Shown here piece after piece: positions 32,701-58,058 of a DNA stretch of 64,000 nucleotides. Each line of letters begins with the position of its first letter. Position 1 is the first letter of the stretch. The position numbers and the translations under genes were made by a program. Source of the DNA: Nitrosopumilus sp. (GTDB lineage Archaea; Thermoproteota; Nitrososphaeria; Nitrososphaerales; Nitrosopumilaceae); NCBI GenBank assembly GCA_965203315.1, contig OZ241857.1, forward strand, positions 608,001 to 672,000. The letters are read 5' to 3'. The notes under the pieces are model-generated. The model was not told the origin of the DNA. It searched no databases and saw only the letters and a list, made by a program, of their open reading frames with translations.

Positions 32701-33972
32701 TTACTCTAAAGTCAGCTAGTATTCCCTTGTTTACTGCATCTTTAAAACTAAGCTTGTGGAATACTGGACCATACTTGGACTCGTCGTCCATAGAGTATAG
32801 ATTGTCAGTCATCTTTGTTTTAATGGCATCGGTATATACACGAGGAGTGGCAGTCATGTACAATCGCCTCTTACCAGAGATGTTGGAATCTTTGTGAATT
32901 AGTTTAAAGTATGATTCATCTTCTACTCCTGTTGTACGATGTGCCTCGTCACAGAATATTGCATCAAATGTGCGACCCTTCATAGTCTGTCTGACGACAT
33001 CTAGAGACTGATACGTTGAAAAGATCACAGTCATCTTGTCGCCAGGTATTGATGAAATGTATGATTTTAGGGTTTTAGGATCAGTAGATACAGGACATTC
33101 TAAATCGGTAAGCGAACCCTCTTCAGATGCAGATACAGTTTTGTCAGAGCATACAGCTATGAAATTATATTTTACGTTAGCATTGTTTGACCAATCTCTC
33201 ATACTTTGTTGAATTAAGGATATTGACGGTACAACATACAATATCAACCCCCCTCTACCTTGTACATGTTCAGCTACATGTAACGCAGTTAGAGTCTTGC
33301 CTGTACCACATGCCATTATTAATTGTCCACGATCATGTGTTTCAAAGTGGTCCAGTACGTCCTCTAGAGCATCCTTTTGATATGGTCGTAATGTAAATGG
33401 TTTATGTAATCTCTCAAACGAATCTGGATATCTACTCCAATCTACATTAGCAGATTTAAAGTCAGACTTTTCTATGACTGTACATTTTATTCCTTTGAGT
33501 TTCTTGAGTGCTGTACTAGTAATAGTATCTGATGTATGCGCAAATATTTTTTGTACGATTTTAACGCCTGAAGCTTTTTCAATAGCTGGTATTGCAGATA
33601 TAAATGAAGATACACCTTTGTTGTCTATTGTGTTGTCGTCGTCATAAAACTTGCATTGCACTGCACAATAGGTACCATCGTGTCGCTCCGCCATTATGTC
33701 TATACCAATATCGCGGTCAGTGCGTTTTTGCCACTTGTTCCAACGGTCTACCTTTCTGAATTGATTTCTGTAAATAGGATCAGTTTCTAGAAATCGTTTG
33801 ACAAGTATCTCAAATTGCTCTCCTTTCTCAACATCATTTTTAGCGGATGATCTAATCTCTTGTAAGATATCATCAAATGTCTTGGTCTCTTGTTTGGAGA
33901 CCAATTAGATGATCTCCTTTGAAGCATATTCATTTGAGTGATTACAGTAAGGATGAGTAGATTTTGTATCAT

Positions 33973-34041
33973 AGTGATGTAAGTTGTAAGTGATGTAAGT
34001 TGTAAGTGATGTAAGTTGTAAGTGATGTAAGTTGTAAGTGA
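33973..34041. repeat. Perfect tandem repeat, 16-bp unit agtgatgtaagttgta x4.3
   Basis: Read directly. Ends 68 bp upstream of the Type ISP TTG start (33904). Confidence 0.95.
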
Positions 34042-34428
34042 ATCTGTGTCATCCACTGGGGACTAGTTTCTGTCCTATTTGGATTTATACACGCCATTAA
34101 CAAAATCGAGACTGTCGAGTTTTTATATCTATGTGAATGAATCTCTTCGATTTATGTGAGATAGTGTTTCGCAAGGCTTTTTCTGTAATTTTCTCTTATG
34201 GACTCTTGTAGTGTTTTCTGTAACTCTCCATCTCACGTAAACCGAAGAGATCTGATCAGAATTGCCTTACCAAGATAAGAGATGGACAGTACAAATTGTT
34301 CAGGCACATTGTGGGTGACTTGAAGCAAAACGTCAGGCTTGTACAGGAATCAAGACGATCTATATCCAAGCCTCTGCAGACGATGACTGTACACCATAAT
34401 GCCAAGAGCGTATTTTGATGGTCACCAT

Positions 34429-35109
34429 CTAGATTGCTTTTTTGCATACCAGTTCCCATTGATACCAAGAACCAGTATTTGGTTGATCACGTTTTATGGC
34501 TAGTTCACGTATAGATTGCATGGTCATGCCTCTGGACTCAACACATTCTTTTAATTCATCTTTTGCAAAGAAATGTATCAACATATCTTGCTTTGATCCT
34601 TCATCGTATCGTATAGTTAGTCCATCGGTATCTTCAAGGATTGTATGCTTGTGATGTATTTCAGTAGATATTGAATTTACACGTACAAACAACATACCAT
34701 TGTTTGCTAGTAGTTTATTGATCTTGTCAAAGTATGAAGTGATTATTTTCTTGTTTCCATGTTGAAGTACTTGGATGGCGACAATATATCCAAAGGTATC
34801 ACTAGTTTCAAGTCCACTGATACTGACACACCACAAGTCTTTAGCATATTTTGGATACAAGCAGACTAGCTCAGATATGGCATTTTGTGATAGATCGATA
34901 CCCAGAATATCTAGATTTTTGGCTCGTAATGGAATGTAATTTCTTCCATTTCCACAACCGAGATACAATCCACGTTCCTGATCTAGATCATTTGCTTTTA
35001 CGAAATTAATGATCTCCTTTACAAAGTCGATCGGAGACTCGTCTCTATATCTGCCCATACTATACTGATCGTTCCATCTAGATGCTATTGTCATATCTTG
35101 AGGCATCAT
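34429..35109 (-). CDS. Class I SAM-dependent methyltransferase
   Basis: GLYLGCGNGRN motif I, GIDLS motif II, LANNGMLFV. Confidence 0.88.
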   Translation of the reverse strand: MMPQDMTIASRWNDQYSMGRYRDESPIDFVKEIINFVKANDLDQERGLYLGCGNGRNYIPLRAKNLDILGIDLSQNAISELVCLYPKYAKDLWCVSISGLETSDTFGYIVAIQVLQHGNKKIITSYFDKINKLLANNGMLFVRVNSISTEIHHKHTILEDTDGLTIRYDEGSKQDMLIHFFAKDELKECVESRGMTMQSIRELAIKRDQPNTGSWYQWELVCKKAI

Positions 35110-35377
35110 AGTTCTAACTCAAGATTTGATCATATAATGCCTTGTTACAAAACAACATAAATCACAACCAATCACACTATACAACACATCTAGAATGCTA
35201 CGATTTACAAGTAGGGATTTCATACAACATGTGCTCTCAAGAGATAAACTATACTAGACATGTCCAACTTTTTTTATTCTACCAGTATGGTATCTCAACA
35301 CCAAAAGAACCTGTCACATGCTGTGAAAAATGTACATACGGGATCATGGACGATAAAGTAAAAAAAATAGTTAAAGT

Positions 35378-36358
35378 TTATTGAGGCTCTAACTCTTGAA
35401 TTTTATCTTTGGCTTTTTGCAATTCAGCTTCTATTGCCTCTAGTTTTGATTCAGTAGTCTCTAGTTTGGTTTTCAGTTCTTCATTTTCTTCTTGTAGTCG
35501 TTGACGTTCCGAATCTGCCTCTTCGTGTAGTTTTTCTAGTACTGCATGTTTTTCTTCAAGTGGATCATATATCAATTGCAGTGCGTTCAATTTGGACTTC
35601 CATGAATTGATTGTCACTTTCAAGTCTTGTTTCTGGTCTACACATTTCTGGTGTTTTACTTTCCAATGATCTTTTAGTTTAATTTTGTTCTCTCTGGCTT
35701 CGTCTAGTTTCTCTATTCGATCATTGAGTTCTGTGGTTGATAGTGATCTTGTTTGTAATGCTGGTTGATTTTGGTCGTCAAACACGTACAAACATTTTTC
35801 ATTTGTGGCTGGGTTCACTCTTACAGAAAGAAAAGTCCAGTCTTGTTCTGAACCTTCAAATTCTGTATGATTATGTATCCAATCTACATCAGGATCTACA
35901 GAATTATCTTTTTTGTAAAAGGCATGTGTATTTTCGATTGAAATGGCTCCTTGTGTTAGGTCGCTCCAATCAACTGTTCTTTGGCTTTCAATTGTCCATT
36001 TACCATATGTAGATTTGTCGGTTTCGTCAAATCCAAACTCATATTCCGTTTTACTGATACTGTCCAATGATATAGTGAATGAAAAATCACCCTCAGAATC
36101 TGTGACTTGTTCTGTGATCAGTCTCTTGTTAAAACTGAATATATGTTCGCCACTTGAAGCAGTGCCAGTGTATTCATCAAAAACCAATGATGTACTAACC
36201 AAACCATAATTTCCTGTATTACCAGATATGGTGAACTCTGTACAACCATCAATGGTCACATCTATACTTGCTTCTTTGTCCGCATATACGTCAGATATCC
36301 CTACAACTCCCACTGTAGCGAGAATTGCTATGATACTAGCTGTCATTGTTTTCATCAT
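35378..36358 (-). CDS. Secreted protein with long C-terminal coiled coil
   Basis: Signal peptide (ASIIAILATVGVVGISDVYA), beta-rich N-domain, and heptad tail IEKL...KDHWK...ELQKAKDKIQELEPQ. Confidence 0.78.
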   Translation of the reverse strand: MMKTMTASIIAILATVGVVGISDVYADKEASIDVTIDGCTEFTISGNTGNYGLVSTSLVFDEYTGTASSGEHIFSFNKRLITEQVTDSEGDFSFTISLDSISKTEYEFGFDETDKSTYGKWTIESQRTVDWSDLTQGAISIENTHAFYKKDNSVDPDVDWIHNHTEFEGSEQDWTFLSVRVNPATNEKCLYVFDDQNQPALQTRSLSTTELNDRIEKLDEARENKIKLKDHWKVKHQKCVDQKQDLKVTINSWKSKLNALQLIYDPLEEKHAVLEKLHEEADSERQRLQEENEELKTKLETTESKLEAIEAELQKAKDKIQELEPQ

Positions 36359-36392
36359 TGAAGTTGCGTTAGGGGGGGGGGTTATAAAGGTA
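36359..36392 (-). promoter_or_regulatory. Archaeal promoter with a C10 homopolymer between TATA box and start codon
   Basis: Minus strand ccTTTATAA-CCCCCCCCCC-taacgcaacttca-ATG. The TATA box ends 23 nt before the ATG, consistent with a leaderless transcript. Confidence 0.7.
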
Positions 36393-36523
36393 TTCTTTAC
36401 ACTTGTGTAACTCTTGACATGTTGATATCAAGACATAGTCTGCATCTACCAATCCCATATACACCAGATATACAATTCTCAAAACTCTGATACACAATAG
36501 ATCTAACGATCAACACCAAACAA

Positions 36524-36691
36524 TCAAAAGAACTTGAAGATCTGTGGTTGATTGTTCTCTTGGTTTTGATGTAGTCTCTTGTGTGTCATCTGCTGAGACT
36601 CGGTCATGTGTGTAAGTATAGCCAAACACTTGTCACATACAACTTTTTTGGGCGATTCGATCTTTTGTGGTTTTGATCGAAACTTATTCAA
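36524..36691 (-). CDS. Small C2H2 zinc-finger protein (55 aa, below the ORF-track cutoff)
   Basis: TTG start. MNKFRSKPQKIESPKKVVCDKCLAILTHMTESQQMTHKRLHQ... contains CxxC-x14-HxxxH. Confidence 0.55.
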   Translation of the reverse strand: MNKFRSKPQKIESPKKVVCDKCLAILTHMTESQQMTHKRLHQNQENNQPQIFKFF

Positions 36692-36698
36692 GATGAAT

Positions 36699-36908
36699 CT
36701 AATGTATGCATCTTTTGTGTTTGGAAATTATAGTGTAATTCTCAGTAGTGTAGACAAGGCGACTTTTTTGGAAATATGTCTCTACACTTTGGACAGTATA
36801 CTTTACCTGGAGCAGTCTTGCACTCGTGCATGTGATGTGGTTTAGCATTTGTATCAAAGCATTTGTGATCTTTGAATACATGGAAGTTAGACAGCGTTTA
36901 CAGTTCAT
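36699..36908 (-). CDS. Small Cys-containing hypothetical protein
   Basis: MNCKRC N-terminus. Co-oriented and tightly packed with its neighbours. Confidence 0.4.
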   Translation of the reverse strand: MNCKRCLTSMYSKITNALIQMLNHITCTSARLLQVKYTVQSVETYFQKSRLVYTTENYTIISKHKRCIH

Positions 36909-37004
36909 GCGTTTGAAATGTACTAGATTGGAGTATATCGGATGTGAAGATCAATCTCATACTGTCTAGATTACTAGTTTTCAGCGAGTCCTGCTATTCT
37001 TTTT

Positions 37005-37703
37005 CTATAACTCTTGTAGTCTATGGTCTAAAATTTCAATATCAAATATTTCACTAGATCGCTGACGAGGGTTTGCTAGAATGAATCTCCGTATCTTACG
37101 ATCCAGTTCTTTGTCATTTACTGCAGGTGGTTTAACTCCCGATGCCAGTATCTCCCTTACGTCTTTTCTCATTAGACGTATAGTCTTTTGATGCAGATGT
37201 AAACCCATCCTCATAAGAAATAGTTTGATCAAATGTTGAGCAATATCTCTACGTGTGTTAAATTTATCGAGATAGTCAAAATATCCTTGCACCAGTATTG
37301 GAATCATCTCTATCTCTGGCTCTACACGCATATCTGTTGCGATCTTTGCTATTCTCTGTTTAAATGAGCGATGTTCATCCCGTGCCAATCCTTCATAGTC
37401 CGCCCAATAGTACTCTGCATTGTTTAGACAATACTCATCTGCATTTTCATAAAATTCATCAACGTATTCACTCAATCGTTTAGCGATCTCTTTTGGATCT
37501 TCTTTGCGTAGTTGAACATATCTGCAATGTCTACTATGCTTGTGTGTACATGGCTTCAATACTATCTCTAGCGTACAACACATTATGAATATTACTTGTG
37601 ATCTCCAAAAGAACCGATTCTCAGCCACAAGATAAACCAACATTGATACTGACATATACTGAATGTGTGATCTACTTGTTCTAGATATCATGTTGAACTC
37701 CAA
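37005..37703 (-). CDS. Hypothetical protein (true start probably internal)
   Basis: Long ORF with a charged helical C-terminal region. No recognised motif. Confidence 0.55.
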   Translation of the reverse strand: MEFNMISRTSRSHIQYMSVSMLVYLVAENRFFWRSQVIFIMCCTLEIVLKPCTHKHSRHCRYVQLRKEDPKEIAKRLSEYVDEFYENADEYCLNNAEYYWADYEGLARDEHRSFKQRIAKIATDMRVEPEIEMIPILVQGYFDYLDKFNTRRDIAQHLIKLFLMRMGLHLHQKTIRLMRKDVREILASGVKPPAVNDKELDRKIRRFILANPRQRSSEIFDIEILDHRLQEL

Positions 37704-37899
37704 AATATACTTGGATAATATGTGGCGTTGTGTTATGATCCACTAGTGTTGTATTATGATCCACTAGTATTCTATACATGACACTTGGGATAGCATCTCA
37801 TGCCCTTGTACTTGTTCCAGTATATGACATCACCCATAGATATCTCTTTACCACATATGGTACACTGATCACTATGCTTTGCTGTTATCTGCATATCAA

Positions 37900-38445
37900 T
37901 CATCTCGACGCAACGATCTCCCACTGTAGATACTTTGTATTGCCTATGACAAGGTTTACGGGTCTCATTCGTTCAATGTCAAAGTCGGTAAGATGTAGCT
38001 CTAGTTCATACTCTGTAAAATAGTGTACATGTGTATCGTTCAGTATGGTGAAACCGCCACGAGGATCACGTTCTGTGACTTTATTAGAGTTGAAGAGTTT
38101 TGGCGTCGCCTTGTTTGCATACATGTACAGTATGGAACCTCTATGCAATATGCGAGATAGAGTCTCAAACAACTCGAAGGTATTGTGTACTTTACCTGCA
38201 AACGCTCTGATGGCGATTGCATAGTCTATTGTACTGTATGGAACATCGTCTAGCATCTGTATGAACGTGCCTGATCTAGATGTATCTAGGTTGATCAAAT
38301 CTTGTACACCATGTAACGAAACATACTCTCTGCCATCACCAATGTATAGTCCATTTCCATTTAGCAACTCACGAGCCTGCAACATCTTGATGATATCAGA
38401 GATGATATATGGTACTCGTACCTCTGGTATGTCTGAATCTTGCAA
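37900..38445 (-). CDS. Degenerate paralog of the SAM methyltransferase at 34429-35109
   Basis: Colinear matches GLYIG/GLYLG, YAIAI/YIVAI, LYMYAN/LFVRVN, HYFTEYEL/HFFAKDEL, QWEIV/QWELV. The glycine-rich loop is eroded. Confidence 0.7.
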   Translation of the reverse strand: MQDSDIPEVRVPYIISDIIKMLQARELLNGNGLYIGDGREYVSLHGVQDLINLDTSRSGTFIQMLDDVPYSTIDYAIAIRAFAGKVHNTFELFETLSRILHRGSILYMYANKATPKLFNSNKVTERDPRGGFTILNDTHVHYFTEYELELHLTDFDIERMRPVNLVIGNTKYLQWEIVASR

Positions 38446-39292
38446 GTCTAGAGTAACTTGTACTGTCTAGTTGTGATAGAATTGAGTTGTTTTATCGTCT
38501 TTATTACTGATTCGTATGTGTTTATCAATAGTTCTAGTGGATCAAAATCTGACATTGTACTCTTTCATTTCTTTCTTCTAAATAACCCAATATTGCTTTA
38601 GTAATCTAGTAAATGAGTTAATCCACTCTCATTCTAGATTGGTTTTTCTTTTTTTGATAATGATCTTGTAATGTAGATTGATTCCCGTATTGTTATACTC
38701 TTGAAATCGGGTTTAGGCATTTATCTTTATCATTATAACATCTAACACATATTGGTAGATTCGTAAGATTTTGTATCGTCTCTATATTAGATGTGAAACA
38801 CTTGTGACACAATCCTGTCTTTGTCATTTTCTACATTCCTACAGAATAAACTCTAATTCATTCACTAGTTTTCCAAGCCTTTGATTTTTTTGAATAGAGG
38901 TTTATCACAAGGTAATAGCACGTCTTGTTGGTCGTCTATTCTTTTTTCTAATTTCGTTAGCATAATGGCGTGTTTATTGGTTATGTAATGTATGTCATGT
39001 ATGTCATGTGTGTAATGTGTGTCATGTATGCGTCTCTCAGTCTTGTCCATAATTCTACTGTCTCACCATATCCACCAATATAGTCAAAAACTGATCTCTT
39101 TGTTTCTTACAGATGTTTAGTATCTTGTCTATTTTCGATCTCTAGAATAGTAAACTGCTTGTCAAGAGATATTTTTTCCAAGTCATGTTCTAATTCAACT
39201 AGGATAAATTCACTACCTGTGTCTAGTTTTTGCATCGTATAACAGTCATACGCTTGTGAGTTTCTTTCAATGTCGTGGCTATTTTATCTATG

Positions 39293-39631
39293 CTATTCAT
39301 TTTTCATTTGTTCTTCTATGTTCTTTTTCAGATCATCTACCCACGCCTCTGATCTCTCTCGATAAAACGATAGTTTATGAGCAGAGCCATCTATACTCTT
39401 CTTCTCAGCAATATACTCGTACACGGTGCGTATTAACTCGTAGTCATATTCATGTAGTCCTGTTATGATTACTTTCCAGAACCGCCCTCGTTTACCTGCT
39501 TCCCAACAGGTATCGCAAATCCAATTATCTTGATAGGATTTATGGTAGCCATAATTTCTGCAATGCACACAGGTACTCTTTGGATCTTTTGCATCAAAGC
39601 AACCGTCTGTCATACTCGATGCTCCCCACAA
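39293..39631 (-). CDS. Small Zn-ribbon protein
   Basis: CVHC...WICDTC. Lies within a run of very short Cys-rich minus-strand ORFs (about 38865-40000). Confidence 0.55.
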   Translation of the reverse strand: MWGASSMTDGCFDAKDPKSTCVHCRNYGYHKSYQDNWICDTCWEAGKRGRFWKVIITGLHEYDYELIRTVYEYIAEKKSIDGSAHKLSFYRERSEAWVDDLKKNIEEQMKNE

Positions 39632-40608
39632 TCTTTACAAGTGGCACAATTAAAACACCTCTCACCAAAGGTAAATCCCACGTATATTTCTGTATCACAC
39701 TCTTTTACAACCATCATTACTCCATACCAGACATTCATGTATATCATACTTGTTACATGCTTTTGTATTTTCAGTTCTTCCAAATTACATACAACACTAT
39801 AACGCTAGTCATCATACTAGATCTTGAATGACTCGTTACAGTCTTGACATTTCATTTTAATCGTATATCCTCACCTTCAAACTCGTCAAACCAATTCCCT
39901 TTGATACTCAAGAGGTGTCCACAATTCATACAGAATATTACGTTTAGATTAGATGTAAGACATGCTTTGTTTAGTTTTTTGCAACAAGTCATACTTTCTA
40001 GATTCCTTTCAAATCAGCTAGTTCTTTGGCTTTACGCTCTTTTGAGATAATCGAGTATTCTAGTTGTTACTAGAATTGGTACATATCTACACATGCGAGA
40101 ATGACTCCAATTGTGAAACAACTCCGCCAACTGTATTCTATGCAACTCTATGCGATCAATTCTTGTTGTTTGATCCACTTGGAACGCTTTGGGTCTACTG
40201 CCACCGTGATCTTGCAGAATCTGCAGTAATGTCGTCTCATATGGTGATTACCTCTCCTGGTCATGCGGGTTAGACATTCTGGACATCTCATTCTTTAACA
40301 CCTTTTAAAATTATACGTGTCTAGACCAAAAATAGTGTATGATACAAGTTTGTTCATGTACTGTTCTGTGATTCTTTTCTCGTAACATGGACATTGCATG
40401 AATAATCCATAAATTAACCATAAATTAACCATCAATCAATTTTTTCTGTATGTTTGTTGTATTATTCACAACAGCAATTTCCAACACAACATCATTCCTT
40501 CTTTAAACAATAACCCATTATACTTTCAACTCTTTGTAATCGGAGTAAACACTTGTAACATACCCAGATATCAAGGTAGTGTCTCTCCTTTATTGCAAAC
40601 ACTAGATC

Positions 40609-41424
40609 TCATCTTTTTCTCTTCTTTTCTTTGAGGTCTTGGATCAACTCGCTCGCTTTACTGACATTGAGGGGCATATCTCCAGTATAACCCAATACCT
40701 TTAGGTACTTTATCTGTCGCACTGTTGGACTGGTACAGTTGGAGTGAGTGTTTACTGGTTTTTGGTCGCTTGTGTTTGATGTACTGGCATCAGATTGACT
40801 CTTTATGTTGGTTTGTAATCTATCATTGTTTTGTACACCAGTATTCTCTGGTGTACAAGTATCGTCTGTTGAGACATTTCCGGCAGTTGTACTCGAATCG
40901 GTACTGGGAATTGTACTAGATGAAGAAGCATCATCTCCAATATGTTTTACCTGTTGTTCTGTACAGTCTTTGATCATGTTGTCTATCTCTATTACGGGTA
41001 TGATCTGTCGCATTGCATTTCGCATCGCCTTTCCGTGTGCTTTGGTTCTACCAAATTCATCATAGTCCGTGCATACATACTGACCTGTCTCTTTATCAAA
41101 GCGATATTTCAAGAATGGTGACTCTGATACTCCTATAGTTACTGCACCTGTTCCAGCGTTCTTGACCTTTGCAGTTGAGTACCATATCCACTGCGATTTA
41201 TCATCGGGATCATGTTTTACTAGTTTTGTATCGGCAAATATTGCTTCGAGTGATTGACCATTTTCTGCCATCCTTTGAGCAATCCACTGTATACCTGTGT
41301 AGGAGAGTTCTTTGTTGCCTTGCTTGTTTACATACACTAGAGCTTGAATCAACTCTTTTGATGCATGTACGATCTGATAGTCATCCTCTTGTTCGTACGT
41401 CTCGATATCTGTATCTGGTACCAT
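40609..41424 (-). CDS. Single-strand annealing recombinase-like protein (Rad52/Sak/ERF-type)
   Basis: LSYTGI...AKVKN..TG...IGVSE...RTKAHGKAMRNAMR core, S/T-rich linker, and a C-terminal PTVRQIKYL..LG...ASELI module as seen on phage SSAPs. Confidence 0.65.
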   Translation of the reverse strand: MVPDTDIETYEQEDDYQIVHASKELIQALVYVNKQGNKELSYTGIQWIAQRMAENGQSLEAIFADTKLVKHDPDDKSQWIWYSTAKVKNAGTGAVTIGVSESPFLKYRFDKETGQYVCTDYDEFGRTKAHGKAMRNAMRQIIPVIEIDNMIKDCTEQQVKHIGDDASSSSTIPSTDSSTTAGNVSTDDTCTPENTGVQNNDRLQTNIKSQSDASTSNTSDQKPVNTHSNCTSPTVRQIKYLKVLGYTGDMPLNVSKASELIQDLKEKKRKR

Positions 41425-41457
41425 GCTAGTATATCTCCAATACTGCGTTAAGAGATA

Positions 41458-41973
41458 TCATTTCAGTAATTCTTGTTCAAACTTGACGCTGTTCTCTCTG
41501 ATGAGTCGATAGAACTCTCGTTCTTCTATGGCTAGTTTATTGATCAACTCGGCATTGAGATTGGTAGAGTCTGCAATCTTTACTAGTTTGCCGCGCCTCT
41601 TTCTAAACAGTTCTAACAACATACCTTCGACTTTATCATAGTCATATCGATCTAGCGTACTCGCTGCATCTTTGAGTTTGATGTAAAAGTGTAGGTCCAG
41701 AGTTGCCAGATTATACTCACCAATCATCTTTTCTTTGGACAGTGCCTGTTTGAGGGCCGATATCACACTGGATTTATCATATATGACCAAATTTTGTTGA
41801 GCAAGGACATCTGCAATCCATCTGGGAAGAGATACTAGCTCGCCCTCTTTACCAGATATCTTTGTTTCTTGTATCTGTATACGTATATCTCGTTTGAACG
41901 TGACCTTGATACAGTCTAGCTGATGACCTATTGTGTACAGTCTCGACATATCACTCATTTTGCCAAGTGACAA
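41458..41973 (-). CDS. gins23: DNA replication complex GINS subunit (GINS23 type)
   Basis: Beta domain first (G.EGELVSLPRWIA.VL), then a helical domain (L.KE...LD.HFYI...R.R.GKLV...LAIEEREFY). Confidence 0.88.
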   Translation of the reverse strand: MSLGKMSDMSRLYTIGHQLDCIKVTFKRDIRIQIQETKISGKEGELVSLPRWIADVLAQQNLVIYDKSSVISALKQALSKEKMIGEYNLATLDLHFYIKLKDAASTLDRYDYDKVEGMLLELFRKRRGKLVKIADSTNLNAELINKLAIEEREFYRLIRENSVKFEQELLK

Positions 41974-42004
41974 GTATTGATATCTAGATACATTGTACGG
42001 TAAG

Positions 42005-42475
42005 TCAAGAGAGCTCTTTCTTGATCCGCTCTGATTCTATAAACTTTACAAACGGCTCCATGTTATACTGGACTAGTGTCTTATTTACTGGATTGCCGAT
42101 ATAGTTCAACACCATATCCCGATATCTCTTGCGTGTACATGCCGATGATGTATGTACGTAATGTTTTATAGTATTATTCAATAACATGGGAGTCACAAAA
42201 GGGTATGATGGAAGTCTCTCCAACGCATCACTGATCCTCCTCAACTGTGCTAGTGTATTTTTATACAGTGGTTTACTAGGAGACTCTTGTATCGATACAT
42301 GTGACATCATGTACATCTCTAATGCATATTCAAGTTCTCTGCCATACACATTCTTGATTGTACCATACCTTGAGAGAAGAAAGTTGTGCCATTTTTCTTT
42401 AATCTCTGCGGATATCTTGGTCGATATGCGACCAGTACGGCGTTCTGGTTTATGACTATTCTTTGTTTCTGTCAT
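42005..42475 (-). CDS. Hypothetical DNA-binding protein (ribbon-helix-helix-like N-terminus)
   Basis: RISTKISAEIKEKW...YG...VYGRELEYALEMYM pattern. Lies between MCM and GINS. Confidence 0.5.
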   Translation of the reverse strand: MTETKNSHKPERRTGRISTKISAEIKEKWHNFLLSRYGTIKNVYGRELEYALEMYMMSHVSIQESPSKPLYKNTLAQLRRISDALERLPSYPFVTPMLLNNTIKHYVHTSSACTRKRYRDMVLNYIGNPVNKTLVQYNMEPFVKFIESERIKKELS

Positions 42476-42559
42476 GATTTATTGTATGTAATCTATATCT
42501 CCTGTTGGATACAGTATGCAGAGTACATATTGATAACATGTTATGGTAATGACTGAAAA

Positions 42560-42852
42560 TGAAAACACATAACATTTGACGAATGTTGTCCATATGCATC
42601 CAGACATAAAATTCTAGGCACGAGATCCACATCTGTATAGTTTTTTGATGTATTTTTTTATTCAATTTGTGTATAAATGTGGAATGTCTGTATCGTTATA
42701 TGGTTTCTGACGTCAGCTGACGTTATTCTTGGATATTTCCTGAAACAGTTCATTTTTGGTTGGTCTTTTGGGCATTTTTGTTCAGAACCACGCCTAGAGA
42801 TTCTCATCTCGGAATGTTTTTTCGTCCGTGTGTCAAATGTCATATGTTTTCA
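42560..42852. other. Inverted 21-bp repeat pair flanking an AT-rich stretch and a central palindrome; candidate replication origin
   Basis: tgaaaacacataacatttgac (42560-42580) matches the reverse complement of 42832-42852 at 19/21 positions. Palindrome acgtcagctgacgt at 42710-42723. Immediately downstream of MCM. Confidence 0.4.
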
Positions 42853-42935
42853 AAAGTTTTTGCCATTCTTTTGTACATCTGGATGATAATACGATGTTAC
42901 TCAATTTGTACATAAACATAAACTGCTTATGTACT

Positions 42936-45089
42936 TTATACAGAAGCAAATTTGCCCGGCGATGTCTCGTAGAGTAGGTTCTCTTGAAACATTTTGTGCA
43001 AGAAATCTCGTGCAGTATCATCATCCCACTTTGTGCTCTTGATCATCTCGCTTATGATCTCTTGTTCTGATACACCGTCAGAGAACTGTGGCGCAATGCC
43101 TTGCATGATATCACGGAATAGATTCATTCTAGATACCATACTTGCAGGTTTGCCACGTTGTACTCCAAAGTCAACCTTGCCCGTGTTTACGTCTACTCCG
43201 CTGGTCTTTAACATCTCGTCTAGTATGTGGATGGCACGCTCTGCGTCATGTATGTCAGCAGTATCTTTTAGCAGAAATTTTGCCCTGGCAATGGTCAGTC
43301 GAACTAGTCCTTCTAGTTGTCGTACTGTTATGGTGAATCCAGACTCGGCATCCTCTGCACGTCTCATGTTTAGATAGTACTGTATGATCTTTGATTCAGC
43401 TGATCTAGATATCTTGGGTTTGAGGCGTTTTGCAATACGCAGATACTTTGCAAAGTCATCTATGTCTATGGGTGTGTGTATTCGATCATGCTCTAATCTA
43501 TGTGACGACATTACATGTTTGGCAATCTTTGTGTCTCGTTCTATAGATGGTATATCACGTACGACAAATATCATGTCAAATCTAGTCAATAGTGGTACAG
43601 GTATAGACGTTACATTCTCTGTTAGATTTCTATATGGATCATACTTGCCGTATGTAGGATTTGCGATTGCAACTACTGACGTTCTCGTGTTCAGACTAGC
43701 TGTTATTCCTGCTTTGGATATACTGGCTTGTTGTTGTTCCATTACCTCATGGAGTGCTGCTCTATCTTTGGTCTCCATTTTATCAAATTCGTCTATTATG
43801 ACCAACCCTTGATCAGCGAGAGCAGTAATACCAGGGTCTAGCATCCATGTTTGAGTTACCTTGTCTTGTACTACTGCTGCAGTCAGACCAGCTGCAGATG
43901 AACCTCGACCTGATGTGTAAAATGATCTTGGTGCAACTCGGTATGTTGCTTTACCCATCTCACTTTTCGCAGTACCTGGGTCACCTAGAATGAATATGTT
44001 GATATCGCCACGAATTCTAGTACCGTCTGATAGTATGTGAGGATTAGCTCCAATCATCGTCAATATCAGAGCCTCTTTGATGAGTGTATGTCCTTGGATG
44101 TGACTAGCAAAAGAGGATATTATCATGTTTGTAGCGTTTGTCTCGTTGTTATTTTTTATCATCTTGCTTATTCGCTCTTTGTCATCACTTGTTATCTCGC
44201 CACCAAAGTCATTCTCGTTGGATAACCGTCGTATGTGGTTTGCGTATAGTCTATGTCTGTATGTTTGAACAGGCACTCCTAACTTTATCTCCTTTGACAT
44301 CTCTGGACGAATCATACCTGATATCTCTACTGTATCTCCCATACGCGCAGTATCCACTAGATCACCTGCTACGAATACACCCAAAGTTTTAGGTAGTTTT
44401 CCAGCTGGTAGTTCATTTGGTAGTTCTTGCAACTGTAGTATCTGATAATCGACAAAGGTAGACTCTTTTGGATTTAACTCAAACTTGCGACTCTTGCATC
44501 TGTCGTTTTCACATATTACTGGTACAGACATGGTATAGTTCTTGTCTGCTTGAATACTAAACACATGACCTTCCTCACATCTGTATACAGCCTTGACGGG
44601 TATGGCCTCGATTGCACTCATGCGGATCAGCATCGCTTTTATCGTCACGAACTGACCAGAATTGTCGCTGTTTATCTCACGAACTCCAAGTATATTTGGA
44701 TAGTTCGACATACGTACAGATATCTTGTCACGTATATCATCAGCATAGTCAGGAAATCGTTGTCGTAATATTTCGTATACTGCTCTTGCAGCTGCTGTAA
44801 GAAAGATGTCCGAGTCTTGCTGAAACACATATGCGATATCATCATCTAGAGCAAAGTCCATGTAATTCATCGTCAATGATGTCTTGTTAGCAGATGGCAT
44901 CAAATCTATCGCATTAACGTATACGTATTCTCCACCTAGCTTGTAATTCTGCATGAACTGTTTTATCACATCTGCTAGTCCAGATTTGGTATAGTCTATA
45001 CTGGTATCCGATTTGATACTAGATTTGATACTAGTATCTTTCACACTAGTATCTTTCACACTAGTATCCTTCACACTAGTGTCTTTCAT
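42936..45089 (-). CDS. mcm: MCM replicative helicase
   Basis: Zn finger (C.EGH...CEN.RC), GDPGTAKS Walker A, IDEFDKM Walker B, LLTRFD arginine finger, ITVRQLE sensor 2, C-terminal wHTH. N-terminal (KDTSV)n repeat. Confidence 0.97.
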   Translation of the reverse strand: MKDTSVKDTSVKDTSVKDTSIKSSIKSDTSIDYTKSGLADVIKQFMQNYKLGGEYVYVNAIDLMPSANKTSLTMNYMDFALDDDIAYVFQQDSDIFLTAAARAVYEILRQRFPDYADDIRDKISVRMSNYPNILGVREINSDNSGQFVTIKAMLIRMSAIEAIPVKAVYRCEEGHVFSIQADKNYTMSVPVICENDRCKSRKFELNPKESTFVDYQILQLQELPNELPAGKLPKTLGVFVAGDLVDTARMGDTVEISGMIRPEMSKEIKLGVPVQTYRHRLYANHIRRLSNENDFGGEITSDDKERISKMIKNNNETNATNMIISSFASHIQGHTLIKEALILTMIGANPHILSDGTRIRGDINIFILGDPGTAKSEMGKATYRVAPRSFYTSGRGSSAAGLTAAVVQDKVTQTWMLDPGITALADQGLVIIDEFDKMETKDRAALHEVMEQQQASISKAGITASLNTRTSVVAIANPTYGKYDPYRNLTENVTSIPVPLLTRFDMIFVVRDIPSIERDTKIAKHVMSSHRLEHDRIHTPIDIDDFAKYLRIAKRLKPKISRSAESKIIQYYLNMRRAEDAESGFTITVRQLEGLVRLTIARAKFLLKDTADIHDAERAIHILDEMLKTSGVDVNTGKVDFGVQRGKPASMVSRMNLFRDIMQGIAPQFSDGVSEQEIISEMIKSTKWDDDTARDFLHKMFQENLLYETSPGKFASV
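45027..45086 (-). repeat. In-frame 15-bp tandem repeat encoding KDTSV/KDTSI x4 at the MCM N-terminus
   Basis: cacactagtatcttt units read directly. Confidence 0.92.
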
Positions 45090-45891
45090 ACTCTTTGTAT
45101 CGTTTCACAAAGTTACGTAATGCCATGGTTGTTACACCAGCTGCACTAGATATTGTATCTTGTTTGATAGATTTACGACATACAAGGTAAATTATTCCAG
45201 CAGCACATACACCAGGATGTGATATTACACCAAAAGGACAGCTAGCCAGTATGTCAAACATCTTGTTTCGTGTTTTGTATGATATGTCAAGAATATTACA
45301 TGCCTTGTTGATTCGAATCTTTATGTTGTTACGGATATCATATGTTATGTTCCATCTCTGTAACATGTATCGATATACTCTACGCGTAGATCTCTTGTTT
45401 ACATTTGCTTGGTCCATTATCTCTGTCTCTTTTATGACTCGACCATGTCTCTTGCATGCAATCATTACACATGCTACAGATACTTGATCGAGACGTCTTC
45501 CGTGTGTGAGTCCCTCACGGATTGCACGTCTTGCAAGGACTTTGGCTTCAGTCGCGATGAGCGTGGTTGCGCCTAACCTACCTAGTAGAGCGTCTAACAA
45601 TTTGTATGTCTTGACGAATCTCCTATCGATGCCTTGAACTTGTAAAGAGTTTGAGATAGTTTTATCACCTATCTTTGTAATTGGTTCACTACCTAGTCCA
45701 TTACCAAGTATTATATCACTAGTTTGTATGACAGAGTCACTTACATCTGATTCGACCATTCTAGACTCGATTATTACGCCGCATTTGCTGCACAATATCT
45801 CGCCTTGTTTTATGTCAGATATCAGCTGGGGCGTATTACAGTAACAGTATCGTTTCATTTTACACAAGAGTGTAGATGACCGTTTCTGCAC
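45076..45891 (-). CDS. tfb: TFIIB/TFB-like transcription initiation factor paralog
   Basis: CYC...D...GEILCSKCGVII Zn ribbon and two cyclin repeats (GLTHGR...VACVMIACK; P.VCAAGIIY...Q..IS.AAGVT..ALRN). Overlaps the mcm start. Confidence 0.85.
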   Translation of the reverse strand: MQKRSSTLLCKMKRYCYCNTPQLISDIKQGEILCSKCGVIIESRMVESDVSDSVIQTSDIILGNGLGSEPITKIGDKTISNSLQVQGIDRRFVKTYKLLDALLGRLGATTLIATEAKVLARRAIREGLTHGRRLDQVSVACVMIACKRHGRVIKETEIMDQANVNKRSTRRVYRYMLQRWNITYDIRNNIKIRINKACNILDISYKTRNKMFDILASCPFGVISHPGVCAAGIIYLVCRKSIKQDTISSAAGVTTMALRNFVKRYKEYERH

Positions 45892-45989
45892 ATGTGTGAT
45901 ATTCTAGTCATGGTGTATTCGCGTTGGTTTTTGTTTATGTGTAATGTTTCAGGCATGTATGATTGCATGATAATGACGACCGACTAGTT

Positions 45990-46439
45990 TCATCTCTTGT
46001 TGTCAAATAACATCTGCATATTAGATGTTTGAGAATTGTGGTTTTCAGTCTGTTTGTGGTTACGTTTAGGATCGTACTTTTGGTTGTATATGCCAGCACT
46101 AGCTAGTCTGATCAATGTAGATGATGATGCTGTACCTGTGAGTTTACCAATCTTGTCCTCTCTTTGTACAAGATCCCAGTGAAGTTTTGTGCGTCCACTC
46201 TTTGATCTGTAGAATATATCCAAGACGCCTTTTGCAGATATTATTGTGTACTCTGGTGTTTCAGATATTGTACACTTGTCTATTGCTCGAACGTGTATCA
46301 ATGATTTGGATTCGCGTTCTAAAAATATTGTAGTATCTTTAATGTATATTTCGGGAATGTCATCGTATATAGACAAAAGAAACCTACGAAATACATCCAG
46401 AGATATCATGATAGTGATCTTGGTTTGAACTCTCTTCAT
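45990..46439 (-). CDS. Hypothetical protein
   Basis: ATG-initiated ORF co-oriented and upstream of tfb. No recognised motif. Confidence 0.55.
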   Translation of the reverse strand: MKRVQTKITIMISLDVFRRFLLSIYDDIPEIYIKDTTIFLERESKSLIHVRAIDKCTISETPEYTIISAKGVLDIFYRSKSGRTKLHWDLVQREDKIGKLTGTASSSTLIRLASAGIYNQKYDPKRNHKQTENHNSQTSNMQMLFDNKR

Positions 46440-46475
46440 GTGTAAAACCCTCGATCAGAACTTTGTATAGGATGT

Positions 46476-46549
46476 GTATATGGCGTATGGTATATGGCGT
46501 ATGGTATATGGCGTATGGTATATAGCGTATGGTATATGGTATATGGTAT
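46476..46549. repeat. Tandem repeat, 14-bp unit gtatatggcgtatg x4, then gtatatg x2
   Basis: Read directly, one mismatch in the fourth unit. Intergenic, upstream of the tfb-mcm genes. Confidence 0.93.
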
Positions 46550-46588
46550 CACCATGTTGGATCACATTGCCCGTGTAATCTAGATTAT

Positions 46589-46888
46589 TCAAATTTTCAT
46601 ATTGGAAGAAAATCCTCGGCATAGACGGACGAACAACCTCATAATTCCGAGATTGCGTACCAGTATGTTCGCCCGCATGTAATATGCTTTGAACTTGCTG
46701 ATCTTCTTTGAAATCTGTGTGATACAAGCGACGCTGCAGGATTGACCTGGCAGAGCCCGTACCTTGTACCTCGCAAATCTATCACAGGTATTACCTGCCA
46801 GTTCTGATGAAAAGGTACCATACGGTTGGTCTAGACCAACTTGCCCCTCGATATGGTACGATCGATTAGTGAGATGTTTGGTACACAT
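46589..46888 (-). CDS. Hypothetical protein (99 aa)
   Basis: ATG at 46888 overlaps the upstream stop (TAATG) and follows a GGAGG motif. Confidence 0.5.
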   Translation of the reverse strand: MCTKHLTNRSYHIEGQVGLDQPYGTFSSELAGNTCDRFARYKVRALPGQSCSVACITQISKKISKFKAYYMRANILVRNLGIMRLFVRLCRGFSSNMKI

Positions 46889-47280
46889 TATTGGTGCACC
46901 TCCAATAGTTTGACTACATTGTCTTGGATTGTAATCTGCTTGTTTAAGATCATCTGTGGTAGAATACAAGCTAGTACCTGCGATGTACATTCTATAGCAA
47001 ATGTCTCGTATAGTGCATCTAGTGTAATTTTTTGAGTATTGTCGTATGTCAATAGAGTGAATATCATGCGTTGTAGCGATGTCTTTAACTCTCGGTCTAG
47101 TCGCTCTTGAATGTCTGCAGTCTCGAGTTGATATTGTTGTACCTTTTCAGATATTGCGGTACACTTGGACATCTTTATGCATACTTTGCATCGAGTTGAA
47201 CCAAACTGTGTATGTGGTTTGTATGTGTAAATGTCATCACCGATCTTTGCTGTACCACAGATACTGTCTAGTCCAATATA

Positions 47281-51153: not shown

Positions 51154-51322
51154 ATCGACTAACGTGAATTGTTGCTGTTTTGAGTCTCATACTGTATGTT
51201 CTGAGATAACGTCATAACGATCTCAACCCCTTCTCCTCCGTCAATTGAACAGAACCTAGCCATATAATATAGATAGTCAAAAAGGATAATATTATAGTAT
51301 TTTACTATAATAACTAGATAAC

Positions 51323-52886: not shown

Positions 52887-52906
52887 AATATATGCAATTA
52901 TGGATA

Positions 52907-53110: not shown

Positions 53111-53122
53111 GGTATCCATTGT

Positions 53123-54579: not shown

Positions 54580-54653
54580 TAAACAGATGGTAATAGAGAC
54601 ACAATCTGTTTTGCACTGGAAATGAAGGTGTGGGGGCAAGAGATATTGGAACA

Positions 54654-54741
54654 TGTAGTGTGTAAACATGGACACCGAATGCACAAACTAGATGAGAAAA
54701 AGGTACGATACATCATTCGAGAAAAACGTAAAGGCACCAAA
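54654..54741 (+). pseudogene. Left end and first codons of an IS481-like element
   Basis: TGT-initiated end (tgtagtgtgtaaac) followed by MHKLDEKKVRYIIREKRKGT, resembling archaeal IS481-type transposase N-termini, then truncated. Confidence 0.5.
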
Positions 54742-54869
54742 GCGACTATTTCAAAAATATTTTACAACCAATATGTAAAAAATCTTAATTACAAAAACAC
54801 ATGTGCGATTTTTATTCGATGAAATAACACATGATATCGAAAAACAATGTCGTTATGAAATTTTAACAC

Positions 54870-55050
54870 TCAACTCGCTGATTAAAAACACCAAAAACAA
54901 CTTCATCCCACGTTAAGTTAAAAGAACCTCGAGTTATCATCATTCCAGAAATAATTGTACTGTTCGATTTTTTCATACCTCCGTATACTTTAAAATTGTC
55001 TTGGAGTCATCCATTAAAACGCTCTTCTATGTTGTTGTTTGATCAGACTG
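54870..55050 (-). pseudogene. Degenerate DDE transposase (IS6-like) C-terminal remnant
   Basis: SNNNIEERFNG*LQDNFKVYGGMKK resembles the NN..ER.NG..R...K..RG.K motif and contains an internal stop. Confidence 0.5.
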
Positions 55051-55171
55051 TATGCGTATTTCTTACATCATACTCACCTTTTAGGGTACAATAAAACACA
55101 TGTGTAATTTCTAGAGGCAAATTGATCCACGGTTGTCATGTTTGATGATTGGGCGTCAGCACTCTTAATAA

Positions 55172-55555
55172 CATGTATACAGTCTTGATGAGTACATAGA
55201 GAAACTAGAAGCCAAGAAAGACAAACTAAAAGAAAAGAAAGACAACTGGAAAGATAGATTACAAGAATTCAAAGAGAATCTAAGAGTAGCCTTTGAAACA
55301 GATACCAAGACTAAAGAACATTTGATCCAATTAGCTAAATCATGTAAAGATGCCACTACTGGACTATCTGATCTGCAGTCTAGATTCAATACTCTAGAAA
55401 CTGAGCATGCAACTCTAAAATCTCAATATACAACTCTACAAACCAACTCCACTCAAACTCAATCTAAACTATCTGAAGCGTTGTTCACAATAGAGAAACT
55501 AACAACTGAACTGAATGAAGCCAAGAAACAGATTGAGGAGTTAGAAAGTCCATGA
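55172..55555 (+). pseudogene. 5'-truncated member of the secreted coiled-coil family
   Basis: Open frame LDEYIEKLEAKKDKLKEKKDNWK...FTIEKLTTELNEAKKQIEELESP matches the tails of 35378-36358 and 5882-6688. No signal peptide; IS debris lies immediately upstream. Confidence 0.7.
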
Positions 55556-55574
55556 GTTATGACTTTACAAGTAG

Positions 55575-56351: not shown

Positions 56352-57412
56352 CTCTTGAGCTCCTCTCTTTTGACACCTTTGTCATAAAACTGTCCAAATC
56401 CCCAACGTCGTGTATTCAAAAATCCTTTCAGTTTAGAACTCGTACTCTTGTTTCGTTTAGTTTCATCACGTATCTCGCGTCCAGTATACGAGATAAATAC
56501 ATCATCCAAGGTTGGTTTGGTAAGTGAGATCGAATCAACCTTTGTATGGTTATTTGCAGCTAGTCGAAATACCTCTGGAATGATCGTCGCACCGTTTGAG
56601 ACAAAGATGGTTAGATTTTCACCGCTGTTTGTTACACGAGATACATCTGGCAGAGATTCTATAGCGTGGACGAGTGATGCAATGTTGTCAGAGTTGCCCA
56701 ACACGACAGATATAATCTCGTTACCTAGAGCGTTCTTCATGTTTGTCGGAGTGTCAATCACTTGAATTTTACCATAGTCGATTATTCCGATGTGATCACA
56801 TAGTTGATCAGCCTCCTCCATATAATGAGTGGTGAGAAATATCGTCATCTTGAACTCATCATGAAGGCGCTGTATATACTCCCAGATCTTTCTTCTAGTC
56901 TGGATATCAAGGCCAACGGTAGGCTCATCTAGGAATAGAATCTTGGGACGGTGCAATAAACCACATGCGATATCTAGTCGCTTTCGCATCCCGCCAGAGT
57001 ACTTTACAACATAGTCGTTCTGTTTATCTCCAAGCTCGATCATGTCGATCAGATTATCGACTCGTGACTCGACATCGCTCTTTGGAACATGGCTCAGGTT
57101 TGCTTGAAAGATCAGGTTCTCTCTGCCAGTGAGGTGATAGTCCACAGTAGAGTCTTGCTGTACATAGCCAATATTTGCTCGAACTTGCTTTGCGTTGCTC
57201 TGTACATCGAATCCAGCAACCTTTACACTACCCAAAGTTGGTTTGAGTAGAGTCGTAAGGATCATAATCGTTGTGCTTTTGCCTGCACCGTTTGGTCCAA
57301 GAAATCCAAAGATCTCACCATCGTCAACTGTAAATGATATGTCTTTTACTGCAACAAGATCGTCAAACGATTTTGTTAGATTGCGAGCTTCTATAGCATA
57401 CATGATCTTCAA
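56348..57412 (-). CDS. ABC exporter ATP-binding protein (DrrA-like)
   Basis: GPNGAGKS, YSGGMRKR, LFLDEPT, TTHYMEEA, C-terminal PTLDDVF. Confidence 0.95.
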   Translation of the reverse strand: MKIMYAIEARNLTKSFDDLVAVKDISFTVDDGEIFGFLGPNGAGKSTTIMILTTLLKPTLGSVKVAGFDVQSNAKQVRANIGYVQQDSTVDYHLTGRENLIFQANLSHVPKSDVESRVDNLIDMIELGDKQNDYVVKYSGGMRKRLDIACGLLHRPKILFLDEPTVGLDIQTRRKIWEYIQRLHDEFKMTIFLTTHYMEEADQLCDHIGIIDYGKIQVIDTPTNMKNALGNEIISVVLGNSDNIASLVHAIESLPDVSRVTNSGENLTIFVSNGATIIPEVFRLAANNHTKVDSISLTKPTLDDVFISYTGREIRDETKRNKSTSSKLKGFLNTRRWGFGQFYDKGVKREELKR

Positions 57413-57778
57413 ATTACATTGTAATTATAAATCCGTAATCACTTGCTAGTACAAGCAACAATCTCACGCATATGTTCATGGATGCGTCTGCCTTGTCACA
57501 TGTCAGCAACCTTCAAACAGTCATTATCCAACATGAATCGCCTGGCTCGTTCAGATGTGAAAGTTTGTGCTCTTGTCTGAGTCAAAAATAGATACCGATA
57601 GTTCTTTTTAGTGGTTGTCCATACTCTACGATATGAATAACAAGATGTTTTTAGATTCCTCCTATCCACAATCGAGAGATCATTAAAGCACATAAGGGGC
57701 ATGATTCCGAATCAGAATATGTCAAATAGCAAGATTCAAATGGGAGAAAAACTAGCCCCCCATCGGATGATACGGATT

Positions 57779-57990
57779 ACTCAACTCTCAAACTCAACTC
57801 TCAAACTCAACTCTCAAACTCAACTCTCAAACTCAACTCTCAAACTCAACTCTCAAACTCAACTCTCAAACTCAACTCTCAAACTCAACTCTCAAACTCA
57901 ACTCTCAAACTCAACTCTCAAACTCAACTCTCAAACTCAACTCTCAAACTCAACTCTCAAACTCAACTCTCAAACTCAACTCTCAAACTC
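57779..57990. repeat. Perfect tandem repeat, 13-bp unit actcaactctcaa x16.3
   Basis: 212 bp read directly. Ends 68 bp upstream of the Type III mod TTG start and is followed by hairpin cctccg-gttgg-cggagg. Confidence 0.97.
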
Positions 57991-58058
57991 TTAGAGCAAA
58001 CCTCCGGTTGGCGGAGGATTATTCGACAGGTGGTGGTAAAATTAGAGGTGAACTCTAA

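Follow-up and report, generated by a model that had tools for sequence, protein, structure and literature searches.

The window analysed here is a stretch of 64,000 nt (C1:608001-672000) from the 2.47-Mb genome of Nitrosopumilus sp., which is assembled in 7 contigs, C1 among them, with a GC content of 38.6%. It contains two restriction-modification (RM) genes, a Type ISP gene and the methyltransferase gene (mod) of a Type III system, each of which is preceded by a perfect tandem array (Table 1). A sequence-only reading of this DNA had treated the arrays as variable-number tandem repeats (VNTRs) in the promoters of the two genes, which would tune RM expression in an archaeon, and this interpretation is supported in part by the present analysis. 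The host is indeed archaeal and a member of the Nitrosopumilaceae, since TFB and MCM proteins are encoded and a housekeeping ABC ATPase is closest to Nitrosopumilus and Nitrosarchaeum records (62-68% identity). The two RM genes are also unrelated, as had been stated.

The single chain of the window Type ISP protein comprises an Mrr-like nuclease, an SF2 helicase, a coupler, an N6-adenine methyltransferase and a C-terminal specificity domain, which places it in the Type ISP family. The specificity domain is split between the main open reading frame (ORF), which matches positions 1-197 of the 342 in the Type_ISP_C profile, and a displaced 3' piece beyond an insertion sequence (IS) element. The joint 28292>29789, which skips the IS element, occurs in 4 contigs of run X2 and 1 of run X4, with only 27 and 25 letters on its sides; these contigs may instead derive from intact Type ISP paralogues. 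The TTG start is backed by the paralogues, which read M-G-T-S-K-A-S-T-F-D-D where the window gene reads L-V-S-K-Q-E-T-K-T-F-D-D. At the other locus, a mod gene with an N6_N4 methyltransferase domain is followed by a res helicase-nuclease gene, the composition of a Type III RM system, and the TTG start of mod agrees with its relatives, which align from query residues 1-5. A second mod gene of the genome (mod2; L223, C5:308223-308245) encodes 869 aa, is 64% identical to the window mod and has the start context TCTAATTGGC. In mod2 a G11 tract replaces the VNTR, nine nt before TAA/TTG (the slash marks the boundary between stop and start), and the junction TCTAA/TTGG is that of the window mod; a 19-codon leader ORF presently ends at this junction, and ATGs in two frames lie upstream (ATGATGGATG).

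Tandem Repeats Finder describes the array before the Type ISP gene as a 16-bp unit present 4.3 times (100% matches, score 138) and the array before mod as a 13-bp unit present 16.3 times (100% matches, score 424), and each ends 68 nt before a TTG start. Both starts read TCTAA/TTGGT (TCTAATTGGT), in which the TAA is an in-frame stop codon that touches the TTG. The repeat finder and the ORF calls bear out the perfect arrays, the equal spacers, the TTG starts and the common 10-mer that the sequence-only reading had listed. The Shine-Dalgarno (SD)-like motifs that it saw before each TTG are likewise sound, as both GGAG (33917-33914) and GAGGTG (58045-58050) have their complement in the 16S 3' end (...GGATCACCTCCT at C1:297344). 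Neither unit contains G on the strand of its gene, which had also been noted; this G-lessness is not general, because the units in GC-rich relatives hold 1-3 G yet are still free of stop and start codons, and it was discarded as a defining property. The 10-mer TCTAATTGGT was rejected as a general start context, its 7 occurrences in the genome including 2 at gene starts, which are those of these two genes.

The equal 68-nt spacing does not reflect a common homologous module. When the two leaders were compared for homology, 22 of 68 positions were identical in register and the global score was matched by 11% of 2000 shuffles, while the spacers at other loci range from 18 to 133 nt. The equality is probably coincidental, a possibility that had been conceded from the start; together with the shared 10-mer it stays unexplained and is taken as coincidence or as convergence on the same layout.

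A position weight matrix (PWM) for TATA-like motifs was learned from 581 ATG gene starts of this genome. Such motifs peak 35-26 nt before ATG starts genome-wide; therefore, most genes of this genome are leaderless. Well-placed motifs of this kind precede ATG codons upstream of both arrays. The ISP leader ATG has a PWM score of 6.92, which corresponds to the 99.7th percentile of random ATGs and the 93.8th percentile of real gene starts, and AATCGAGAGATCAT before the mod leader ATG, with a score of 4.57 (95.2th percentile of 3000 random ATGs), is the top match within 400 nt upstream of mod. For the RM starts, the scores are 1.71, -5.56 and -1.07; neither of the 68-nt spacers contains a TATA-like motif, and none stands at leaderless distance from the two TTGs (PWM 1.71, -5.56). 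Contrary to the sequence-only reading, the arrays are thus probably not promoter elements; from the position of the motifs before ATGs upstream of them, they would lie inside small upstream ORFs.

The leader ORFs so defined have their own start, and neither repeat unit is a multiple of three in length, an arrangement of the pil1 type discussed below. Four in-frame ATGs (57701, 57719, 57740 and 57767) lead into the mod array. By simple arithmetic, the distance from the first leader ATG to the RM start is 358 nt at mod (58059-57701), which becomes 345 nt and in frame with mod after the loss of one unit; at the Type ISP gene it is 193 nt (34097-33904), which becomes 177 nt and in frame with the gene. 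The same properties extend to the arrays of other loci described below, since none of the 11 unit types carries a stop or start codon on the sense strand, whatever the frame, and none has a length that is a multiple of three. A leader would therefore exit its array in a frame set by the copy number.

Across the spacers of 8 independent leaders, the frame of the gene contains 0 stops in 200 codons, as opposed to 29 in 413 for the other two frames together (binomial 4.7e-7; Fisher 1.6e-5). In this frame, both window leaders would run to a stop with 0 nt between it and the RM start, which is the geometry of termination-reinitiation. Another frame stops within one or two codons of the array end at most loci (at -67 in both window loci and at -31 in three Type ISP paralogues, ISP1-3); in this second frame, the leader ORF of the window loci ends directly behind the array, 64 nt before the RM start. 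In the third frame, the leader ORF overruns the RM start into the gene, out of frame. As assembled, both window loci have the frame that stops early, and the deletion of a single unit would bring them into the coupled one.

The stop-start junction is shared by the related loci. Wherever the start of an array-bearing ISP gene is clear (11 of 11), an in-frame stop touches it, and the window mod (mod1) and mod2 have such a junction as well; the forms are TAA/TTG, TAG/ATG, TGA/TTG, TGA/ATG and TGA/GTG, and in L207 stop and start overlap as TGATG. Of the ISP genes without an array, 3 of 14 have this adjacency, and over the whole genome it occurs at 154 of 1594 crude gene calls; the difference between array-bearing and array-less genes has a Fisher probability of about 8e-5, or about 5e-4 when paralogues and orthologues are collapsed. 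Loci in which the start or N-terminus is unclear (L187, L189, L190, L191, L212, L215, L218, L219, L237, L241, L242, L245, L046/L056 and L054) were dropped from this count, and L182, with an array of only x2.6 at 93% matches and no adjacent stop, falls outside both classes.

The RM starts also lie in hairpins together with their SD motifs, with minimum free energies (MFE) of -12.8, -13.0 and -18.8 to -20.3 (z -2.8 to -4.2), compared with a mean of -6.7 (sd 3.2) at the gene starts of the genome. At the Type ISP gene, the 8-bp hairpin GGAGATCA (33917-33910) / TGGTCTCC (33903-33896) holds the stop-start junction in its loop (MFE -12.8, z -3.3). The hairpin at mod, AATTAGAG/CTCTAATT (58040-58047 / 58053-58060), covers both SD and start (MFE -13.0, z -4.2), and the spacer carries a further GC hairpin at 58001-58017. 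A scan of the gene strand for a premature terminator overlapping the long leader form, made with sigma-70 and terminator models that are unsuited to an archaeon, gave none; the structure present is the SD/start hairpin.

Table 1. Features of the Type ISP and Type III mod loci in the window (window coordinates).
Feature	Position	Strand	Details
Displaced 3' piece of Type ISP gene	27468-28304	-	Type_ISP_C profile positions 197-338 of 342
IS element in Type ISP gene	28293-29788	.	DDE_Tnp_4 transposase 28513-29733 (-); bounds from contigs skipping the IS
Type ISP RM gene	29774-33904	-	1376 aa, TTG start; Mrr_cat_2, ResIII, ISP_coupler, N6_Mtase, Type_ISP_C
68-nt spacer of Type ISP gene	33905-33972	-	gene frame 0 stops/21 codons until TAA 33907-33905 abutting TTG
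Leader ORF of Type ISP gene	33969-34097	-	42 codons + TGA 33971-33969; now frame 2, ends directly behind array
Perfect 16-bp x4.3 array	33973-34041	-	sense unit TCACTTACAACTTACA; no G, no stop or start codon in any sense frame
TATA/BRE-like motif CATAGATATAAAAA	34120-34133	-	conserved T 30 nt before ATG 34097
TATA/BRE-like motif AATCGAGAGATCAT	57670-57683	+	conserved T 25 nt before ATG 57701; candidate promoter of leaderless leader ORF
Leader ORF of mod	57701-57994	+	97 codons + TAG 57992-57994; now frame 2 relative to mod, ends directly behind array
Perfect 13-bp x16.3 array ACTCAACTCTCAA	57779-57990	+	no G, no stop or start codon in sense frames; unit length mod 3 = 1
68-nt spacer of mod	57991-58058	+	gene frame 0 stops/21 codons until TAA 58056-58058 abutting TTG; frame 2 has 4 stops/22
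Type III mod methyltransferase	58059-60572	+	837 aa, TTG start; N6_N4_Mtase; PADLOC MTase_III 2.7e-141
Type III res subunit	60569-63295	+	908 aa, 4-nt overlap with mod; NF046055, 2e-283

The link between repeats and RM genes extends beyond the window. A search for arrays with a period of 4-45, at least 3 copies and at least 90% matches gave 19 arrays on contigs C1, C5 and C6; seven arrays on C2 and C3 were left out, as both contigs seem foreign (a 188-bp satellite x15.9, low coding density and long runs of dinucleotides). Of the 19 arrays, twelve end at most 150 nt before an ORF start, and RM genes account for 5 of these 12 ORFs, namely mod and the Type ISP gene of the window and the three further Type ISP genes ISP1-3, each of the latter starting 32 nt behind a TATCCAT array. 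When paralogues are counted once, 3 of 10 arrays stand before RM genes, for which the binomial chance is roughly 6e-4 on the assumption that about 35 of about 2100 ORFs are RM-related, which is our estimate. A sixth RM-linked array, GACAG x67.8 (C1:1677323-1677661, L006), lies inside a Type IIG gene, in which a single PADLOC profile is matched in two frames, at positions 114-905 ahead of the array and at positions 926-1243 after it, such that the methyltransferase part and the specificity part are currently in different frames. The association of repeats with RM genes, for which the sequence-only reading had asked for a genome-wide count, is thus real, general and more than chance, as judged from these counts, the Type IIG array and its recurrence in relatives. 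It places a perfect, slippage-prone tract in physical linkage with the 5' end or the ORF of an RM gene, as in known contingency loci.

The other arrays adjoin a PDC-S01 candidate defence ATPase, an IS-split GT4 glycosyltransferase and a 1037-aa protein without a Pfam or PADLOC family. The array before the ATPase (AAA_14/DUF4143) is a 33-bp unit x6.7 (C1:720577-720797, L002), 23 nt from the gene, and each unit carries a strong TATA-like CAACTATATAAAAA (PWM 7.7). A common upstream module of the ISP and GT4 loci was considered and rejected, since it is a dispersed element of about 145 bp that is not locus-specific. This MITE-like (miniature inverted-repeat transposable element) sequence occurs at window 55045-55185 and at about 80 other genome sites with 80-93% identity, and copies lie upstream of the ISP2, ISP3 and GT4 arrays. 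DNA methyltransferases are numerous in the genome (26 N6_N4_Mtase and 8 N6_Mtase matches). Most of these matches fall within C1:430000-730000 (300 kb, window included), which looks like a very large defence or variable region.

The same layout is encountered in other genomes. The Type_ISP_C domain is present in 25 of 301 family genomes, this one included, and perfect arrays lie 18-120 nt before the start in 8 of the 30 ISP genes inspected in other genomes of the order (L180, L183, L184, L185, L188, L226, L234 and L245). Their units, CTCCGAG, AGCTCTGTAC, CGCTCTGG, GCTCTGCACG, TATTCCTTCC, TCAAGAATCAT and AGAC, are unrelated in sequence, and TATCCAT x4 was found in 0 of 150 other genomes of the genus. 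Relatives of the mod protein also occur in 25 of 301 family genomes, this one included (24 of the 300 others). Among 17 loci that match at the N-terminus, the 5' region contains a G or C homopolymer of 11-14 nt in six, a perfect array lies upstream in three, and an imperfect array is present in one. The homopolymer lies inside the mod ORF itself, as in the classical design, in L199, L203, L204, L205 and L211, all five of which are out of frame in their assemblies; from these in-ORF tracts, frame dependence would be the ancestral logic of this mod family. When the window ISP protein was used to search for related loci, 23 pattern stretches matched and none was confirmed, and exact searches gave 0 matches for the ISP junction in genome contigs and 0 for the mod leader in metagenome contigs.

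Differences in tract length between copies with conserved flanks are seen for ISP1-3, for L180 and L185 and for a poly-G tract of the window. In ISP1-3, 109 of 109 upstream bases are identical and the genes are 96-97% identical, and TATCCAT is present x17.4, x10.4 and x22.4. In L180 and L185, which belong to two species, 105 of 116 leader positions and 541 of 600 gene positions are identical and the CTCCGAG arrays differ by 63 nt. The window poly-G10 tract (36372-36381; C10 on the gene strand), which lies between TTTATAA and the ATG at 36358(-) of a gene for a coiled-coil protein, is two G longer in run X2 only; the contigs of X1, X3 and X4 are without this addition, and the tract is the one repeat resolved by the run contigs. 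Five runs from three studies contain the window strain, and their contigs end at the arrays. Two imperfect arrays of the window, 46476-46549 (14 bp x5.3) and 38982-39030 (9 bp x5.4), are sites at which low-depth contigs of run X4 fold back (46545>46532 and 39016>38988), hinting at extra units in a minority.

The best explanation of these features, as far as they can be read from sequence, is that the arrays are slippage-prone repeats within short leader ORFs, which would make the loci archaeal contingency loci. In the proposed mechanism, the leaderless leader ORF is translated from the upstream ATG through the array, and the copy number modulo 3 would set one of three outcomes for the ribosome, namely an early stop, a stop precisely at the RM start or passage beyond it. 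The hairpin would be opened, with reinitiation to follow, only by a ribosome terminating at the stop-start junction, and the gain or loss of one unit would thereby toggle RM translation on or off. The junction would retain the dependence on frame while sparing the enzyme the peptide encoded by the repeat. That copy number sets the frame of the leader ORF and thus switches termination-reinitiation at the RM gene is, in our judgement, about evenly poised between right and wrong.

Several observations weigh against this switch. Some of the supporting loci had already served to form the hypothesis, and the loci seen later are few; of these, L207, mod2, L226 and L234 fit, and the start of L245 is unclear. 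L183 has a TAG at the array junction in the frame of the gene, and the upstream arrays at L206 (start unclear), L209 and L195, as well as those before the GT4 glycosyltransferase and the 1037-aa gene, are without a stop-start junction, which in turn is also formed by the three array-less ISP genes mentioned above. Frame 1 is also stop-free over the spacer in the three leader families of the genome (0/22, 0/22 and 0/10), so that the gene frame is not alone in being open there. The promoter scores of the leader ATGs in ISP1-3 are moderate only (77th-89th percentile), and the hairpin z-scores are weak in the relatives (-0.6 to -2.2). The contigs of 4 runs over 27001-47000 break at 33973-34041 and 46476-46549, where the copy number is unreadable. 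Finally, the window ISP gene and ISP1 are IS-disrupted, and the switches there are perhaps no longer relevant; the window Type ISP switch may be a relic, the gene being split.

A TATA-like ATCCATTATATGAT straddles the array end at ISP1-3 (PWM 4.9-5.2), which speaks against the translational switch and suits a transcriptional VNTR, the idea of the sequence-only reading. In this account, the arrays would be untranslated and would tune transcription stepwise, through the distance or helical phase that separates the core promoter from an upstream site, or the start from the TATA box. Control by promoter repeats is known in bacteria from the hmw and fimbrial genes of Haemophilus influenzae and from nadA of Neisseria meningitidis. 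The giant genes described below, at least 14 with TTTTATAA-G(11-15)-8 nt-TTG, in which the tract length sets the distance from TATA to start, and the one window tract between TATA and ATG that differs by 2 nt between samples are also consistent with such control. We nevertheless consider it unlikely for the RM arrays, given the lack of a TATA-like match in the 68-nt spacers or at leaderless distance from the window TTGs, and because it leaves unexplained the stop-start junctions, the openness of the gene frame, the absence of stop and start codons in the sense frames and the unit lengths never divisible by 3.

The same junction and frame statistics are unpredicted if the arrays instead lie in a long 5' untranslated region and act by their length, their lack of structure or the binding of a small RNA or protein, which would give graded control. 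The promoter-like motifs upstream of the arrays and the inability of G-less arrays to form strong structure accord with such a rheostat, and a small RNA of Helicobacter pylori targets a variable G-repeat in an mRNA leader (PMC8295292); the unit sequences are unrelated between loci, which leaves no common binding site, and Rfam gave 0 matches at E<=1 in 33000-59000. We regard it as distinctly improbable. The least probable account in our view is that the arrays have no present function and are neutral slippage products, or relics of in-ORF repeats, in horizontally acquired and often decaying RM genes. The IS disruption of the window ISP gene and ISP1, the Type IIG gene that is out of frame, the five out-of-frame mod relatives with in-ORF homopolymers (L199, L203, L204, L205 and L211) and the absence of TATCCAT x4 from 150 other genomes of the genus are in line with decay. 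Against it stand the recurrence of the same architecture with unrelated units in several genera, the 100% perfection of the arrays, which implies ongoing turnover, and the frame-specific absence of stops, which would decay without selection.

The closest precedent is the pil1 locus of Streptococcus gallolyticus, in which leader-peptide repeats switch pilus genes (PMC3894217). There, a GCAGA repeat, likewise not divisible by 3, lies in an upstream leader ORF whose length decides whether a ribosome gets as far as a downstream stem-loop and melts it; the stem-loop is a transcription terminator that acts by attenuation, and the controlled genes encode pili (PMC3894217). In the present loci, the hairpin covers SD and start and is combined with a stop-start junction, implying translational coupling, and RM enzymes would be controlled. 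Translational coupling by termination-reinitiation is reported in archaea (PMC6728339), and in Haloferax volcanii and Escherichia coli about 20 nt between stop and start almost abolish reinitiation (PMC10666635). The stop at 0 nt from the start, or overlapping it as TGATG in L207, agrees with these cases, and the distance of 64 nt in the alternative frame is well beyond some 20 nt. Unlike the two stable genes of the known archaeal cases, the upstream ORF here is a variable, repeat-filled leader, and the coupling itself would be switchable. In Haemophilus influenzae lic1 and lgtC, several ATGs in different frames lie upstream of a repeat that is translated within the protein. The ATGs in different frames before the G11 tract of mod2 (ATGATGGATG) resemble this arrangement; the translation of the repeat as part of the protein in lic1/lgtC differs from the layout described here.

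Phase-variable Type III mod genes of bacteria, the phasevarions, have been surveyed (PMC5909438). The window mod resembles them in that a hypermutable tract is linked to the gene and the frame, as proposed here, would decide expression, and in its relatives from other Nitrosopumilaceae the 5' coding region contains G/C homopolymers of 11-14 nt. It is unlike them in that the tract belongs to a leader ORF separate from mod, whose stop touches the mod start, and in its long units (13 and 16 bp across the two loci) and archaeal host. The main texts of this survey and of a Type I survey (PMC7383803) contain no word beginning with "archae". No description of phase-variable RM genes in archaea was found in the literature searched, which took in the main texts of PMC5909438 and PMC7383803, and two surveys of archaeal RM systems mention phase-variable RM only via bacterial references. 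A statistical study of short homopolymers from 2010 covered 18 archaeal genomes (PMC2831843). According to a 2025 review, it is seemingly only in pathogens that genomes contain many loci of this kind, and surveys of archaea are listed there among future tasks (PMC11868660).

In the present case, a nitrifying archaeon that is not a pathogen has all of these features at its RM genes, as do relatives from several genera. Phase variation driven by repeats is classically a means of bet-hedging in bacteria. Here, the layout points to a switch that would combine leaderless initiation with translational coupling. A wider proposal, which we advance tentatively and hold to be somewhat doubtful, is that this family of ammonia-oxidising archaea runs multi-locus phase variation by two mechanisms suited to archaeal gene expression, in which the frame of repeat-filled leaderless upstream ORFs would gate termination-reinitiation at RM genes and poly-G tracts between TATA and start codon would shift the transcript start relative to that codon in leaderless giant genes. 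If true, stochastic switching of defence and surface genes would not be restricted to bacterial pathogens, and virus-host dynamics would be shaped by it in a globally important group of nitrifiers.

The giant genes number at least 14 (583-3085 aa, with an N-terminus like LSKRHLI) and share the arrangement caagatacTTTTATAAgatac, G(11-15), about 8 nt and TTG. They lie at 136717, 266538, 553358, 775046, 851331, 1065482, 1253609, 1742635, 1793541 and 1917952 on C1 and at 81629, 196309, 267558 and 313924 on C5. The poly-G tract stands between a TATA-like box and a start of leaderless type, and a change in its length would move the point at which the transcript begins with respect to the start codon. 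No Pfam family was found in the three giant genes tested. In total, the genome holds 36 G/C tracts of at least 10 nt.

Between the two RM loci, the segment 41458-45891 of the window encodes an MCM helicase (717 aa) and TFB-like and GINS/Sld5-like proteins among transposases and ORFs without a family, and it is possibly an integrated mobile element. Elsewhere on the same contig, a CRISPR-like array with the repeat GTCTGAATGAAACTTCTACTAAAACAAAGATTGAAAC extends over C1:1011365-1016338.

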